Positions 1 to 6,093 of a stretch of 6,094 bases of DNA are shown piece by piece; within the stretch, counting starts at the first letter, position 1; every line of letters begins with the position of its first letter. A program made the position numbers and the translations under genes. Source of the stretch: Escherichia phage St-1; the sequence record GQ149088, one strand, 5' to 3'. A model generated the notes under the pieces. The model did not search any database and was not told the origin of the DNA. It worked only from the letters and a program-made list of their open reading frames with translations.

Positions 1-64
1 TGTTGACATTCCCTGAGCCCTTATGAGACTCTTGCTTCAACGAAATGAAGTAGGAGTCTTTTTT

Positions 65-349
65 ATGAAGCCAGCTCACCGCCTTTATCATTCTGTGCTT
101 GGTTCTTGGTTGTTTAAGTGCCCTGTTTATATCCGTTATGAGTACCTTCATCATGGTCGTCTTATCAAGGTTCGCGCCGTTCGTGACCTTTCCCCGCGTC
201 AGCAGTTGATTGCCAATCCTAAAAATTGTTTGACGTCGTTATTGCCGAGATTGACGTTACTCACCTTTCTGTCACTTGGTATGATTTTGAGGCTGAAGAG
301 TATGCCGAGTGTGATTCCGGCACTATGGAACTTCTTCTTTCTCAGGTGA
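65..349 (+). CDS. Hypothetical basic protein, spacer ORF 1; only the N-terminal part (about 65-226) looks coding
   Basis: ATG at 65 preceded by AGGAG (52-56) with 8-nt spacing. From 65 to about 226 roughly 54% of codons end in T (manual count; CGT/CTT/GTT-rich like the known genes). The ORF track starts this frame at 23, but codons 23-64 lack that bias. After about 227 the bias in this frame falls to about 22% although the frame stays open to TGA 347-349. Product begins MKPAHRLYHSVLGSWLFKCPVYIRYEYLHHGRLIKVRAVRDL. No homolog recalled. Confidence 0.35.
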   Translation: MKPAHRLYHSVLGSWLFKCPVYIRYEYLHHGRLIKVRAVRDLSPRQQLIANPKNCLTSLLPRLTLLTFLSLGMILRLKSMPSVIPALWNFFFLR

Positions 350-435: not shown

Positions 436-525
436 ATGGAGACTGTTATCGGAAAATTTATTGCTCTGGCTGTTGTTGCTCTTATGCTGTATGGAATTTC
501 CTGTTTGATTCGGAGGTTCCCGTGA
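436..525 (+). CDS. Hypothetical 29-aa hydrophobic peptide with a single predicted transmembrane helix, spacer ORF 3
   Basis: ATG 436 lies 3 nt after the ORF 2 stop and is preceded by GGAG (426-429, 6-nt spacing). Product METVIGKFIALAVVALMLYGISCLIRRFP has a hydrophobic core and a basic C-terminus. About 48% T-ending codons. Stop TGA 523-525. Confidence 0.35.
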   Translation: METVIGKFIALAVVALMLYGISCLIRRFP

Positions 526-698
526 AATATTTTAGTTTGGTTGATGAACATTATGCTTATTGCCCTGAGACAAGGATTCTGCATATCACTCGTAGTCGTG
601 TTTCTGACCCTCGTTATGAGCGTCGCTTTCTTACTGATGAGGAGCATTTTGCGCTTTTGGATTGGTTAAAAAATCGCCCGACTTATATTAATTCTTGA
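522..698 (+). CDS. Hypothetical 58-aa protein, spacer ORF 4
   Basis: GTG 522 overlaps the ORF 3 stop as GTGA, the same arrangement as the A/C junction, and is preceded by GGAGG (512-516, 5-nt spacing). About 62% T-ending codons (manual count). Product MKYFSLVDEHYAYCPETRILHITRSRVSDPRYERRFLTDEEHFALLDWLKNRPTYINS. Stop TGA 696-698 falls inside the -35 box of the gene A promoter. Not in the supplied ORF track (below its length cutoff). Confidence 0.4.
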   Translation: MKYFSLVDEHYAYCPETRILHITRSRVSDPRYERRFLTDEEHFALLDWLKNRPTYINS

Positions 699-724
699 CA
701 GACCTTTAAAATACCCACTATATT
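695..724 (+). promoter_or_regulatory. Sigma70-type promoter for gene A (pA)
   Basis: Perfect -35 TTGACA (695-700), 18-nt spacer, -10 TATATT (719-724), immediately upstream of gene A. Positionally equivalent to phiX174 pA in the H-A intergenic region. Confidence 0.55.
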
Positions 725-754
725 GCCCTCGCAGGTTTACTACGAGGGCTTTTT
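725..754 (+). terminator. Intrinsic-terminator-like hairpin (T_H equivalent), also the 5-prime leader structure of the A mRNA
   Basis: GCCCTCG (725-731) pairs with CGAGGGC (743-749), a 7-bp GC-rich stem with an 11-nt loop, followed by TTTTT (750-754). The 3-prime arm contains the likely gene A Shine-Dalgarno GAGGG (745-749). phiX174 has an analogous hairpin plus T-run just before the A start. Confidence 0.5.
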
Positions 755-757
755 CGC

Positions 758-2242
758 ATGGCTACTGAAATCTTCTCTGATGTTGTTAAGGCTGTTTGGT
801 CGCACGTTACGGCCAAGCATGCTCATCTTCGTATGGCTGTTCAGGTTGATAATCGTAGCCGCCTTCTCTCTGACCTTGTTTATCAGTTGGAAAAACGTCT
901 TTCTGAAGAGACTCATTTGGATGGTGAGACTCTTGCCGTTTATGAATCTCAGACCGCTCTTCTGGAGGATCATATGGCTCTGGTTCGGAAGTGTGCTGCC
1001 CAACTTGATAATAGTAACACTATAGACCACCGTACTCCTCTGGATGCCGAATGTGTTTTTCTGTTTGAAATGATTTGCCCAGGTGTTCGCTACGGTAAAA
1101 CGTTGAATTCTCTTTGGACTAAGTATGTAGCCCAGTGGCCTGAAAAGTTGATTCGTCATGAGCTTGATATGGTCAAGCCTTTATCCTTTAAGGATGAGGT
1201 TGCTAAGTACATGGAGAAAATGCAGGAAAAAACACGCAAGAACCGCATGACTCAGAAAGTAATTAATGAGATGCGTATTGCTCACCAGAAAGGCTGGTTC
1301 TTTGTATTTGATACACTGACCCTTGCTGATGACCGTTTGCAGGCTTTTAATGAAAACCCCAATGCTCTTCGTGATTATTTTAGGACTGTTGGTCGAGCTG
1401 TTCTGCGCGCTGAAGGTCGTTCGGTTAAGGATTCCTACAACGACTGCTATCGTTATCTTTGTGTGCCGGAGTTTGGAGGTCAGCACGGCCGTCTTCATTG
1501 GCACGTTGTGCATATGGTGCGGACTCTTCCTTTGGGAAGTCACGACCCTAATTTCGGTCGCAAGGTACGTAATTATCGCCAGATTAACTCGTTCCGTGGC
1601 ATGTGGCCCTATGGCTTCACGCAACCGATAGCTGTTCGCTATCAACATGACGCTTATTCTCGTAAAGGTTGGCTGTGGCCTGTTGACAAATCAGGAAAAG
1701 CAATGCAGAGTAAGCCGTATCAGGCGGTCGCATGGTATGTGACCAAGTATGTAGCCAAGCAATCTGACCAGCGTCAGAAAGCTATTACCGAGAGACAAAA
1801 GAAATGCAAGAATCCATTAATGGCAATCTGTCTGAAGAAAGAATTTCGGGTGCGCAGCAGTCGGAAGCTCGGAATGGAGCTCCCGTCAATGGCTCACCTG
1901 AGCAACAAAGTGCTTCTGGAACTGAGCCGAATCAGCTTCGATTCCAGCCCTCTGTATCAGATAGTGAAAGAGAACGCCAAAAAGCAATTGACCTTGAACA
2001 TCGGCGCGCTGCCTTTGCACGTCATTTTGGATGTGCGCCCGGAAGTGAGAAGCATGTTGAAAATTATTCGTCGTTTGATGAAAAAGACACCCGAGTTCAA
2101 TTGGCAGAGTTCTATCGCTTCAATGACGGTCACCTTAAAAAATGGGGATATTTCTGATGAAGCACGTCAATACATTATTGATGCAGGAATTACGCCTACT
2201 GATTTGCGAGCTAAAGCGACTCAGGCTTTCGGCGGTAAGTGA
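758..2242 (+). CDS. A: Replication initiation protein A (rolling-circle HUH endonuclease)
   Basis: 494-aa ORF alignable by recall to phiX174 protein A, including FVFDTLTLADDRL, NPNALRDYFR, a GRLHWHVVH HUH-like motif and the catalytic tyrosine pair in WYVTKYVAK. It contains the conserved origin sequence and ends in TGA 2240-2242. GAGGG lies 8 nt upstream of the ATG. Confidence 0.95.
   Translation: MATEIFSDVVKAVWSHVTAKHAHLRMAVQVDNRSRLLSDLVYQLEKRLSEETHLDGETLAVYESQTALLEDHMALVRKCAAQLDNSNTIDHRTPLDAECVFLFEMICPGVRYGKTLNSLWTKYVAQWPEKLIRHELDMVKPLSFKDEVAKYMEKMQEKTRKNRMTQKVINEMRIAHQKGWFFVFDTLTLADDRLQAFNENPNALRDYFRTVGRAVLRAEGRSVKDSYNDCYRYLCVPEFGGQHGRLHWHVVHMVRTLPLGSHDPNFGRKVRNYRQINSFRGMWPYGFTQPIAVRYQHDAYSRKGWLWPVDKSGKAMQSKPYQAVAWYVTKYVAKQSDQRQKAITERQKKCKNPLMAICLKKEFRVRSSRKLGMELPSMAHLSNKVLLELSRISFDSSPLYQIVKENAKKQLTLNIGALPLHVILDVRPEVRSMLKIIRRLMKKTPEFNWQSSIASMTVTLKNGDISDEARQYIIDAGITPTDLRAKATQAFGGK
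1001..1030 (+). other. Viral (+) strand origin of rolling-circle replication; protein A nick site predicted between G1007 and A1008
   Basis: CAACTTGATAATAGTAACACTATAGACCAC differs at only 2 of 30 positions from the phiX174 origin CAACTTGATATTAATAACACTATAGACCAC as I recall it, and sits inside gene A as in phiX174 and G4. Confidence 0.85.
1804..2157 (+). CDS. B: Internal scaffolding protein B
   Basis: 117-aa ORF embedded in gene A in a different frame. The C-terminus LAEFYRFNDGHLKKWGYF matches the phiX174 B C-terminus (PAEFYRFHDAEVNTFGYF). The Shine-Dalgarno is weak. Confidence 0.9.
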   Translation: MQESINGNLSEERISGAQQSEARNGAPVNGSPEQQSASGTEPNQLRFQPSVSDSERERQKAIDLEHRRAAFARHFGCAPGSEKHVENYSSFDEKDTRVQLAEFYRFNDGHLKKWGYF

Positions 2243-3065: not shown

Positions 3066-4361
3066 ATGTCTAATGTACAAACTTCCGCTGAACGTGAAAT
3101 TGTTGACCTTTCTCATCTTGCCTTTGACTGTGGCATGATTGGTCGTTTGAAAACTGTTTCATGGACTCCTGTTATTGCTGGCGATTCCTTTGAGCTTGAT
3201 GCTGTTGGCGCTTTGCGTCTTTCTCCTCTGCGTCGTGGTTTAGCTATTGACTCTAAGGTTGATTTTTTCACTTTCTATATTCCGCATCGCCATGTTTATG
3301 GTGACCAGTGGATTCAATTTATGCGTGATGGTGTTGATGCCGCACCACTCCCTTCCGTTACTACTACTCAGTATCCGGATGACGCTGGTTATGTTGGTAC
3401 TATTGTTCCTAAGAGCAACCGTATTCCTAAGTTTTTGCATCAGTCTTATCTGAATATTTATAATAACTATTTCCGTGCGCCGTGGATGCCTGAGCGTACT
3501 GAAGCTAATCCTTCAAATTTAGACCGTGATGATTCTCGCTATGGATTCCGTTGCTGCCATCTTAAAACTATTTGGTCTGCTCCTCTTCCTCCGGAAACTA
3601 AGCTCGCTGAGCAAATGGGCATTGAAAGCAATTCCATTGATATTATGGGTTTGCAGGCCGCTTATGCGCAGCTTCATACTGAGCAGGAGCGTACTTATTT
3701 CATGCAGCGTTATCGTGATGTTATCTCCAGCTTTGGCGGTTCAACCTCCTATGATGCCGATAACCGACCGTTGCTTGTTATGCACACCGATTTCTGGGCT
3801 TCCGGTTACGACGTTGACGGTACCGACCAATCTTCCCTCGGACAGTTTTCGGGTCGAGTCCAACAGACGTTTAAACACTCAGTGCCTCGATTCTTCGTGC
3901 CGGAGCATGGTGTCATGATGACTTTGATGCTGGTTCGCTTCCCGCCTATCAGTCCTTTGGAGCATCATTATCTTGTTGGTCGTAATAATTTGACTTATAC
4001 CGACCTTGCGGGTGACCCGGCTTTGATTGGTAATTTGCCGCCACGTGAGATTTCTTATCAGGATCTTTTCCGTGATGGTCGTCCGGGCATTAAGATTAAG
4101 GTTGCCGAGTCTATCTGGTATCGTACTCATCCGGATTATGTTAACTACAAGTATCAGTTACTTGAAGGTTTTCCGTTCCTTGATGATGCGCCCGGTACGA
4201 CTAGTGGTGATGACCTTCAGAAGGCTATTCTCATTGACCATAATGACTATAATGCCTGTTTCCAGTCTCAGCAGTTGCTTCAGTGGAATAATCAGGCTCG
4301 TTATAATGTCAATGTTTATCGTCATATTCCTACTGTTCGTGATTCTATTATGACCTCTTGA
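3066..4361 (+). CDS. F: Major capsid protein F
   Basis: 431 aa, alignable along its whole length to phiX174 F by recall (MSNVQTSAER, ALRLSPLRRGLAIDS, YGFRCCHLK, SIDIMGLQAAYA, QFSGRVQQT.KHSVPRFFVPEHG, TRDSIMTS). AAGGA lies 7 nt upstream. Confidence 0.97.
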   Translation: MSNVQTSAEREIVDLSHLAFDCGMIGRLKTVSWTPVIAGDSFELDAVGALRLSPLRRGLAIDSKVDFFTFYIPHRHVYGDQWIQFMRDGVDAAPLPSVTTTQYPDDAGYVGTIVPKSNRIPKFLHQSYLNIYNNYFRAPWMPERTEANPSNLDRDDSRYGFRCCHLKTIWSAPLPPETKLAEQMGIESNSIDIMGLQAAYAQLHTEQERTYFMQRYRDVISSFGGSTSYDADNRPLLVMHTDFWASGYDVDGTDQSSLGQFSGRVQQTFKHSVPRFFVPEHGVMMTLMLVRFPPISPLEHHYLVGRNNLTYTDLAGDPALIGNLPPREISYQDLFRDGRPGIKIKVAESIWYRTHPDYVNYKYQLLEGFPFLDDAPGTTSGDDLQKAILIDHNDYNACFQSQQLLQWNNQARYNVNVYRHIPTVRDSIMTS

Positions 4362-4394: not shown

Positions 4395-4958
4395 ATGTAT
4401 CAAAATTTTGTTACTAAGCACGATACCGCCATTCAGACATCCCGTTTTTCTGTTACTGGTAGTATCACTCCTGTTGCGCCTACTGGTAATATCCCTGTTA
4501 TCAATGCTGGTAATATTACTGCTGAGCATGCTGTTGTTAATCTTTATGCTAATTTGACCGCTGGCACTTCTTCTGATGGTTCTTTTATTGTTGCTATGAA
4601 GGTTGACACCTCTCCTTCTGACCCTAACTGCGTTATCTCTGCTGGTGTTAACCTTAGCTTTGCTGGTACCTCATACCCGATTGTTGGTATTGTTCGTTTT
4701 GAGTCTGCTTTTGACCAGCCCACTTCTATTGCTGGTAGTCAGATTGAGCATTACCCAATTGAAATGTCTGTAGGTTCTGGTGGTGTTTGTTCTGCTCGCG
4801 ATTGCGCTACTGTTGATATTCATCCTCGCACTTTTGGCAATAATGTTTTTGTTGGTGTGATTTGTTCTAGTGCTAAATGGACCTCCGGTCGTGTGCTTGG
4901 TACCATCGCTACGACTCAGGTTATTCGTGAGTATCAGGTCCTTCAGCCGCTTAAATAA
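4395..4958 (+). CDS. G: Major spike protein G
   Basis: 187 aa with phiX174 G-like motifs (RFESA/RFESS, DC.T.D..PRT.GNNV.VG, VI.E...LQPLK C-terminus). AAGGA lies 6 nt upstream. Confidence 0.95.
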
Positions 4959-5041
4959 AAGGCCGCCGCACTCCCGGTTATGTGTCTGCCCAGTGTAGGG
5001 CGGACCGAGCCGTACGGAGATACCCGATAAACTAGGAACGT

Positions 5042-5068
5042 GGAAGGCGTTAGCCGCCTTCCCTCCTG
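5042..5068 (+). promoter_or_regulatory. Candidate complementary (-) strand origin element: hairpin plus adjacent CTG primase start site
   Basis: GGAAGGCG (5042-5049) pairs with CGCCTTCC (5055-5062), a perfect 8-bp stem with loop TTAGC, followed by CTG at 5066-5068, within a 136-nt GC-rich G-H intergenic region. DnaG-dependent origins of G4-type phages are hairpins with a CTG initiation site. Confidence 0.4.
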
Positions 5069-5094
5069 CTAAGCCCAAAAAAGGAGCTTACAAT

Positions 5095-6093
5095 ATGCTT
5101 GGAAGTATCATTGGAGGTATTGGCTCATCGCTGCTCGGAGGACTTGCTTCCGGCGGTATCTCCAGTCTCCTTAATAAAATGTTTAGTAAAATGCCAGAAC
5201 ACGCCGCCTCTTCTGCTGGCCTTACTAATGGTCAAGGAACTATTGGTATGGATACTGACGCTGGCATTCAGTCTGCTATTCAGGGCTCTAATGTTCCTCC
5301 TGCTGGTCAATTGCCTGCCTCTAATACCTCTGGTGTTATGGCTGATGCTGGTAATATGATTCGTAATGCTGGCAGAGCTTTGCTTGACGGTACGATTCAG
5401 GCCGGTTCTGACAAGGTTAAAGAGGCTCTTATTGATAAGTTGGTTGGAGGTAATGATGCTAAAGACCGAGGAAAGGCAACCCGTGATTACTTGGCAGCGG
5501 CTTTCCCTGAGCTCAACCCATGGGAACGTGCTGGAGCTGATGCTTCCACTGCCGGGTTAGAGTCTTCCGCTCAGAATCAACAAAAAGAGATGCTTAAAAT
5601 GCAACTGGATAACCAGAAGGATATTGCCAAGATGCAGATGAATAACAATTTGCAGATTGCTGGCATTCAGTCCGCTACATCTCGCCAGAATACGAAGGAT
5701 TCTGTTTATGCCCAGAATGAGATGCTTCAGTATAATCAACGTGAGTCGCAGGCACGCGTTGCGTCCATCCTCGCCAACACTGACCTTACGACTAAGCAGG
5801 CCACCCATGAAATTATGAGGATGGCTCTTACCCGCGCTCAGGAGACTGGTCAGCATTTGACTAACTCTCAGATTATGGCTTTGGAGAAAAAGGTTTATGC
5901 AGAAATTGGCAAAATTCATCAAGATACTCAAAATTCTCGCTATGGTAGCTCTCAAGTTACTGCCGCAGCGAAAGACGTTACGAATATGATTACTGACGCC
6001 TCTTCAGGCTTTGCTGATTGGGCCTCTCAGCAGTGGAATTCATTCTTTAAGGATGGTAAGTCTGATGGTATTCCTCTCAATACCAGAAAATAA
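5095..6093 (+). CDS. H: Minor spike / DNA pilot protein H
   Basis: 332 aa with a Gly-rich N-terminus (GGIGSSLLGG) and long stretches matching phiX174 H by recall (AGI.SAIQGSNVP, TRDYLAAAFPELN.WERAGADAS, LDNQK.IA.MQ, IAGIQSATSRQNTKD.VYAQNEML, NSRYGSS). AGGAG lies 8 nt upstream. Stop TAA 6091-6093. Confidence 0.95.
   Translation: MLGSIIGGIGSSLLGGLASGGISSLLNKMFSKMPEHAASSAGLTNGQGTIGMDTDAGIQSAIQGSNVPPAGQLPASNTSGVMADAGNMIRNAGRALLDGTIQAGSDKVKEALIDKLVGGNDAKDRGKATRDYLAAAFPELNPWERAGADASTAGLESSAQNQQKEMLKMQLDNQKDIAKMQMNNNLQIAGIQSATSRQNTKDSVYAQNEMLQYNQRESQARVASILANTDLTTKQATHEIMRMALTRAQETGQHLTNSQIMALEKKVYAEIGKIHQDTQNSRYGSSQVTAAAKDVTNMITDASSGFADWASQQWNSFFKDGKSDGIPLNTRK

Follow-up and report, generated by a model that had tools for sequence, protein, structure and literature searches.

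A predicted promoter, a predicted intrinsic terminator and the ribosome-binding site of gene A overlap in one 63-nt stretch (positions 695-757) of the Escherichia phage St-1 genome. This element is the alphatrevirus ortholog of the published pA-T_H composite of phiX174, an arrangement that is therefore already known. Three signals are packed in this way into about 60 nt of a very small genome, and the choice of the transcription start site would decide the fate of the transcript, which is either terminated and masked or translated. Such a composite, in which both termination and the masking of the Shine-Dalgarno sequence (SD) depend on where the RNA starts, is quite probably the best explanation of the data described below. 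To the principle known from phiX174, the present analysis adds an orthologous example, covariation of the stem across genera and a natural variant, NC35, in which parts of the promoter and of the stem were deleted together.

The window, that is, the whole stretch of DNA analysed, is a complete alpha3-like microvirus genome of 6094 nt (Bullavirinae, Alphatrevirus), with whole-length identities of 95% to Lilleven, 94% to phiK and 92% to alpha3. Gene positions transferred from the alpha3 annotation placed gene A at 758-2242 and gene H at 5095-6093, with the H stop at 6093. Positions 1-757 form the long H-A spacer that is typical of the alpha3-like clade. The element lies at the end of this spacer, on the coding strand and directly 5' of the replication gene A, as pA-T_H does in phiX174. 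The features on which the analysis is based were as follows.

26-65, plus strand: post-H terminator-like hairpin, with the stem at 26-59, a T-run (T6) at 60-65, AGGAG at 54-58 in the 3' arm and an ATG at 65
522-698, plus strand: upstream small ORF of 58 aa, a hypothetical protein in Lilleven
695-700, plus strand: -35 hexamer TTGACA of pA, read from the sequence; TTGAC(A/T) is kept in 28 of 29 Bullavirinae sequences, and phiK has TTGGCA
701-718, plus strand: pA spacer of 18 bp, constant in length over the intact alpha3-like sequences
719-724, plus strand: -10 hexamer TATATT of pA, ending exactly at the start of the hairpin
725-749, plus strand: terminator hairpin, with the 5' arm at 725-731 plus 733-734 and the 3' arm at 743-749 plus 740-741
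731 (plausible range 730-733), plus strand: predicted pA transcription start, a G located 7 nt past the -10, placed from the RefSeq start of phiX174
744-748, plus strand: Shine-Dalgarno GAGGG of gene A, inside the 3' arm (743-749) of the hairpin
750-754, plus strand: T-run (U-tract) TTTTT; relatives have 4-7 T
758-2242, plus strand: gene A (replication initiator) with the start codon at 758-760, taken from the ORF list; alpha3 annotates A at 759-2243

Sequence analysis showed that pA has what is expected of a sigma-70 promoter, with near-consensus hexamers, an 18-bp spacer and a purine (G731) 7 nt past the -10, and it is accordingly a predicted promoter. Of its 12 hexamer positions, 11 agreed with the consensus, and no other promoter match on either strand of the window was better. 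A match of this quality was expected 0.108 times per random genome of the same size and composition (2000 first-order Markov genomes), and on its own the sequence match is only mildly unusual. pA is convincing because it lies 34 nt before the ATG of gene A on the coding strand and because it is conserved, the TATATT being identical in the alpha3-like sequences except for ID32 (TATAGT) and NC35, in which it is deleted. These numbers bear on the possibility that a promoter-like match and a palindrome met here by chance. An 11/12 match turns up somewhere in about 10% of random 6-kb genomes, and over the whole window promoter-like sites are as numerous as expected from shuffling, both of which fit such a coincidence. 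It is contradicted by how well the element is conserved, by the covarying stem pairs, by an ortholog that has been defined experimentally and by the exact position in front of gene A, and its probability is practically negligible.

The hairpin that follows the -10 hexamer (GCCCTCGcAGgtttaCTaCGAGGGC) has the layout GCCCTCG-c-AG-gttta-CT-a-CGAGGGC, in which the stem consists of seven G+C-rich pairs (six of them G-C in this outer stem), one C/A mismatch and two inner pairs. The RNA of 725-749 folded with -15.8 kcal/mol (z -4.6), and none of 200 shuffles folded as well. Five separate places in the genome reached -15.8 kcal/mol or less (best 33-nt fold); among these, only the hairpins at 725-749 and 27-59 precede a run of at least five T. 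The hairpin is followed by TTTTT (750-754), CGC and the ATG at 758. The distance between GAGGG and this ATG is 9 bases, which is long yet within the usable range. The initial annotation had already described the -10 at 719-724, the hairpin at 725-749, the T-run and an SD within the stem, all of which are present in the sequence and conserved; its position for GAGGG (745-749) had to be moved one base to the left, to 744-748.

With a generic intrinsic terminator the hairpin shares the stable G+C-rich stem-loop, the immediate T-run and the location where an upstream transcription unit ends. It differs from one in its internal mismatch, which leaves a loop of 11 nt if the outer seven pairs count instead of a short loop (3-8 nt) on an uninterrupted stem, in having only five T, and in its location inside a promoter and a ribosome-binding site. 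Because of the inner C/A mismatch and a loop limit of 3-8 nt, the hairpin was not listed by a simple terminator scan. A search of window 600-900 against Rfam (E-value mode) gave no family match. Since the U-tract is short (5 T, and 4 in NC3 and one IMG/VR locus) and the stem carries an internal mismatch, termination at 725-754 is probably partial. In the latter two sequences, IMG/VR locus L003 and phage NC3 (L036), only four T follow the hairpin (GAGGGCTTTTCGC), which suggests weaker termination there.

The 5' arm of the hairpin occupies most of the stretch between the -10 of pA and the predicted start. By the same spacing as in phiX174, the start is predicted at about G731 (724 + 7), the same position as had been proposed in the initial annotation. 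A polymerase at pA would thus begin about 7 nt past the -10, near G731, where six bases of the 5' arm already lie behind it. The resulting transcripts would lack the full stem, would not be terminated at the T-run and would carry an unstructured 27-nt leader with a free SD. Polymerases coming from upstream, either from the spacer genes or from H after passing the hairpin at 26-59, would transcribe both arms, and the stem and the U-tract would end part of these read-in transcripts shortly ahead of the ATG, at about 755-758. The remaining transcripts, which read through, would have their SD paired within the stem. Protein A synthesis would then be tied mainly to the RNA initiated at pA.

Thermodynamic computation agreed with this proposal. 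Freeing the SD cost 12.9-13.1 kcal/mol with the 5' arm present, compared with 3.3-3.5 kcal/mol in RNAs starting at 730-733, and the same contrast between presence and absence of the 5' arm was computed for alpha3, phiX174 and G4. The leader RNA from 730-733 had an MFE of -5.4 kcal/mol (z +2.0), and all 200 shuffles folded at least as well. In four phages of the alpha3, G4 and phiX174 types, leaders from the predicted starts had less structure than their shuffles (z +0.2 to +2.0), those from the equivalent starts of alpha3, ID32, phiX174 and G4 being likewise unstructured. As pA transcripts would lack the 5' arm, be unstructured and have an SD that is cheap to open, they are expected to escape the terminator and to expose the SD. 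The earlier claim of an SD that is free in pA RNA and masked in read-in RNA is thus borne out as a thermodynamic prediction (opening at about 3.4 versus about 13 kcal/mol), and the mechanism as a whole is supported by orthology and by computation. Translation of read-through RNA would accordingly be masked in this phage, and protein A may be kept "low and promoter-specific", with a possible benefit from limiting its amount.

The kinship with the pA-T_H composite of phiX174 (H-A intergenic region, nt 3927-3980) was found at every sequence level on which the latter is defined. Common to both are the site directly 5' of gene A, the TTGACA -35 and, after 17-18 bp, a -10 with the first G of the stem immediately behind it. 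The 5' arm GCC(C)TC(C), the SD-bearing 3' arm, the T-run and the ATG are shared as well, and the arms align across genera with compensatory changes by which the pairing is maintained. In phiX174 the promoter and the terminator overlap, and pA-T_H produced a net 0.29-fold change of transcription from H to A (Logel & Jaschke, bioRxiv 10.1101/2020.03.05.979765). Saturation mutagenesis located two mutation-sensitive hexamers, the -35 (3927-3932) and the -10 (TTTCAT, 3950-3955), and assigned the ribosome-binding site of gene A (GGAGG, 3969-3973) to the 3' stem of T_H (Wei, Li & Lehner, bioRxiv 10.64898/2026.07.25.740675). The transcription start is given as 3962 in RefSeq NC_001422, which is 7 nt past the -10 and inside the hairpin at 3956-3974.

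The two elements also differ in several respects. The -10 is TATATT here, a better hexamer than the TTTCAT with TRTG extension of phiX174; the stem here is longer and contains an internal mismatch (-15.8 versus -12.8 kcal/mol); the T-run has five T here versus six; and the distance from SD to ATG is 9 nt here versus 7 nt. In phiX174 the element follows H directly, whereas here it comes after a 757-nt spacer that holds small ORFs and a separate, stronger post-H hairpin. The promoter, the start within the hairpin, the termination and the overlap with the ribosome-binding site are documented for phiX174, whereas the start and the termination of the alpha3-like element are predicted. A literature search found no mapping of 5' or 3' ends for any alpha3-like phage, and in the accessible phiX174 literature no statement was found that pA transcripts escape termination and masking of the SD.

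The phiX174 work also bears on a rival explanation, in which the hairpin does no more than end upstream transcripts and stabilise their 3' ends, its overlap with promoter and SD is a by-product of genome compaction, and masking of the SD in read-through RNA has no regulatory weight for protein A. The terminators of phiX174 also stabilise the transcripts that end at them, and a separate point against the start-site-dependent composite is that the level of the phiX174 pA transcript is low largely owing to mRNA instability and not to the hairpin (Zhao et al. 2012, PMC3335065). In the saturation mutagenesis, the share of detrimental mutations was 63% for the 3' stem of T_H compared with 13% for the 5' stem (Wei, Li & Lehner, bioRxiv 10.64898/2026.07.25.740675), that is, substitutions in the 5' stem were mostly tolerated and those in the 3' stem, which holds the ribosome-binding site, were not. 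Because substitutions in the 5' stem are rarely harmful, stem formation adds little to laboratory fitness, and the 3' arm may be constrained mainly as a ribosome-binding site. The viability of NC35 without the stem points in the same direction. Against this explanation stands the computed SD-opening penalty of about 9.5 kcal/mol, which is expected to affect translation strongly, together with the conservation of the layout and the manner of the NC35 deletion, both described below. We consider it unlikely.

Comparison with relatives bore further on the composite in which termination and masking depend on the start site. The region 5' of gene A was gathered from 28 further Bullavirinae sequences (14 alpha3-like, 6 phiX174-like, 7 G4-like and the unclassified Lilleto) from GenBank records and IMG/VR; the IMG/VR scans with protein A of phiX174 and G4 returned few loci. 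For locus L021 the start coordinate was about 9 nt off, by which its alignment row is out of register, and the layout is still readable. The part of MG945254 that was retrieved (nt 1-900) lies outside this region, as the record begins at another point of the genome. All 28 relatives except NC35 had a -35, a spacer of 17-18 bp and a -10 that ends exactly at the start of a G+C-rich hairpin, whose 3' arm is GGAGGC or GAGGGC and is followed by a T-run and the ATG. The abutment of -10 and stem is common to phiX174, G4, Lilleto and the intact alpha3-like sequences. That this exact abutment and an SD in the 3' arm were kept across three genera and Lilleto, with differing arm sequences, argues against an overlap that arose only from compaction.

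The pairing itself was conserved at two levels. Within the alpha3 clade, two of ten pairs showed compensatory changes (U-A to A-U, and the A/C mismatch to A-U or G-C), and 93% of the cells were paired, compared with 36-54% when the partner was slid; covariation at this level was modest, as 12 of 500 shuffles reached the observed score. Across genera, GCCCTC/GAGGGC is swapped for GCCTCC/GGAGGC, three of seven pairs covary, and 92.9% of the cells were paired versus 29-58% with the partner slid; none of 500 shuffles attained the observed score. The hairpin versions of alpha3, ID32 and ID62 had 10-11 pairs and loops of 3-5 nt, and where ID32, ID62 and IMG/VR loci have G-U wobbles, their RNA still pairs well. 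At a greater distance, in an IMG/VR contig (L024, 553-597) with a protein A 52% identical to that of G4, GCCTCCA-ATTA-TGGAGGC, T6 and the ATG are kept immediately after an H-like ORF; its -10-like sequence is weak, with TGTG before it, and the hairpin/SD/T-run part seems there to be more conserved than the promoter part.

These wobbles are also relevant to the proposal that the inverted repeat serves in the single-stranded viral DNA and not in RNA, for example as a signal for replication, packaging or protein binding. The plus strand is the packaged genome, and the repeat folds as DNA too (-8.8 kcal/mol, z -4.3). Chemostat-evolved phiX174 lines repeatedly change the H-A intergenic region, with the authors undecided between an effect on replication and one on transcription. 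Several relatives, however, keep the pairing by way of G-U wobbles, and the T-run, the SD in the 3' arm and the abutment of the promoter are features of the RNA level. The phiX174 ortholog is, moreover, a measured site of transcript loss, and the homolog of the G4-type primase origin is located elsewhere, in the G-H spacer. An action on single-stranded DNA is therefore very unlikely. That homolog, at 4958-5079 in the G-H intergenic region, was 76% identical to the complementary-strand origin of G4 over 123 nt (E 1e-19), and because of it the idea that the long H-A spacer, hairpin included, is a primase-dependent complementary-strand origin was rejected. Two of the strongest local hairpins of the genome (4981 and 5035) lie within the same origin homolog.

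The phage NC35 provided a natural variant of the element. Its sequence (L005 and L038, a GenBank record and an IMG/VR copy) carries a 29-nt deletion at about 695-729, corresponding to window 703-731, which takes out the -10, the pA spacer in front of it and six nt at the start of the hairpin's 5' arm. The -35 is retained, as are the T-run, the ATG and an SD that reads GAGGA. The fold of the hairpin remnant was not significant (z -1.1), and nt 1-900 of NC35 contained no promoter-like site and hence no replacement promoter. The joint loss would fit a supply of protein A by upstream transcripts once the anti-SD/terminator arm is gone, and it is suggestive only, as NC35 is a single isolate sequence in which an assembly error is possible. 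That the -10 and the 5' arm were lost jointly, and not either alone, is a further point against a hairpin that serves upstream transcripts only.

The logic of the composite, in which termination and masking follow from the start site, is the same as in the protection of the IS10 and IS200 transposases. In these systems, the RNA from the element's own promoter lacks the upstream repeat arm and is translatable, and outside transcripts are likewise terminated or have their ribosome-binding site paired. Outside transcripts of IS10 reportedly undergo "fold-back inhibition", which Davis, Simons and Kleckner are said to have described in 1985. In the phage element, pairing of the ribosome-binding site only in transcripts started upstream corresponds to the computed difference of about 13 versus 3.4 kcal/mol. 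IS200 has a terminator against impinging transcription and a stem in the 5'-UTR that sequesters the SD (PMC4513863). The likeness is a functional analogy only, with no kinship in sequence or evolution. Unlike in IS10/IS200, one hairpin does both jobs here and also overlaps the stretch from the -10 to the start, and the protected gene is the phage replication initiator A and not a transposase at an IS end.

The overlap may have a further consequence for the promoter. As the 5' arm must complement the SD, the stretch from the -10 to the start has to be rich in C (GCCCTC or GCCTCC), a trait shared with rRNA promoters, and pA could for this reason be sensitive to ppGpp/DksA. The overlap also matters for the refactoring and modelling of microvirus genomes, in which separating pA from T_H alters both; one gene-expression model of phiX174 had to shift transcription elements that overlap ribosome-binding sites.

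Transcripts leaving H reach another hairpin first, at 26-59, which was absent from the initial annotation. It has 15 pairs and about -19 to -21 kcal/mol (z -4.4), is stronger than the hairpin at 725-749, and is kept in alpha3, NC35 and ID32. This hairpin is probably the real terminator behind H, and the SD of the first spacer ORF should be masked within its stem. A second TTGACA lies at 3-8, 3 nt past the H stop (6093) and at the same distance as in G4, and no good -10 was found downstream of it.

The spacer ORFs between the two hairpins are probably genes. Among 15 alpha3-like sequences, the variable sites by codon position numbered 33/35/64 in the ORF at 65-349 and 15/11/33 in the ORF at 522-698, with an excess at third positions in both, and Lilleven is annotated with hypothetical proteins in the H-A spacer region. 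PHROGs gave no family for four spacer ORFs, including these two. Transcripts of the ORF at 522-698 would run into the hairpin at 725-749. The stop codon of this ORF is the TGA at 696-698, which lies within the -35 hexamer of pA.

Design is all that the post-H module (3-67) shares with the pre-A module (695-760); no sequence similarity was detectable. As sequence duplicates they were rejected, since their alignment was no better than that of shuffles (z 0.2). The similarity of the post-H module to phiX174 (z 4.8) came mainly from the last H codons and from the SD and T-run. We tentatively propose, as a doubtful reading, that alpha3-like phages carry the TTGACA/hairpin-SD/T-run/ATG design twice, on either side of about 690 nt of small genes that are under purifying selection, as though an insertion had divided an ancestral H-A junction, and that the -10 and the anti-SD arm form a coupled pair that is lost only together, as in NC35.

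Some minor observations were made on other hairpins and isolates. Within gene A, 33 nt past the start codon, a hairpin at 791-823 (GCTGTTTGGTCG...CGGCCAAGCATGC) has -15.9 kcal/mol and no T-run behind it. In a phiX174 chemostat isolate (HM753709, L029), TG is inserted inside the T_H hairpin (GCCTCCAAATCTTG[TG]GAGGC). This insertion was considered as an adaptation that weakens the stem, and as the energy changed only from -12.8 to -12.1 kcal/mol, no conclusion was drawn. Several other evolved phiX174 isolates were 1-2 nt longer across the 200-nt query region.
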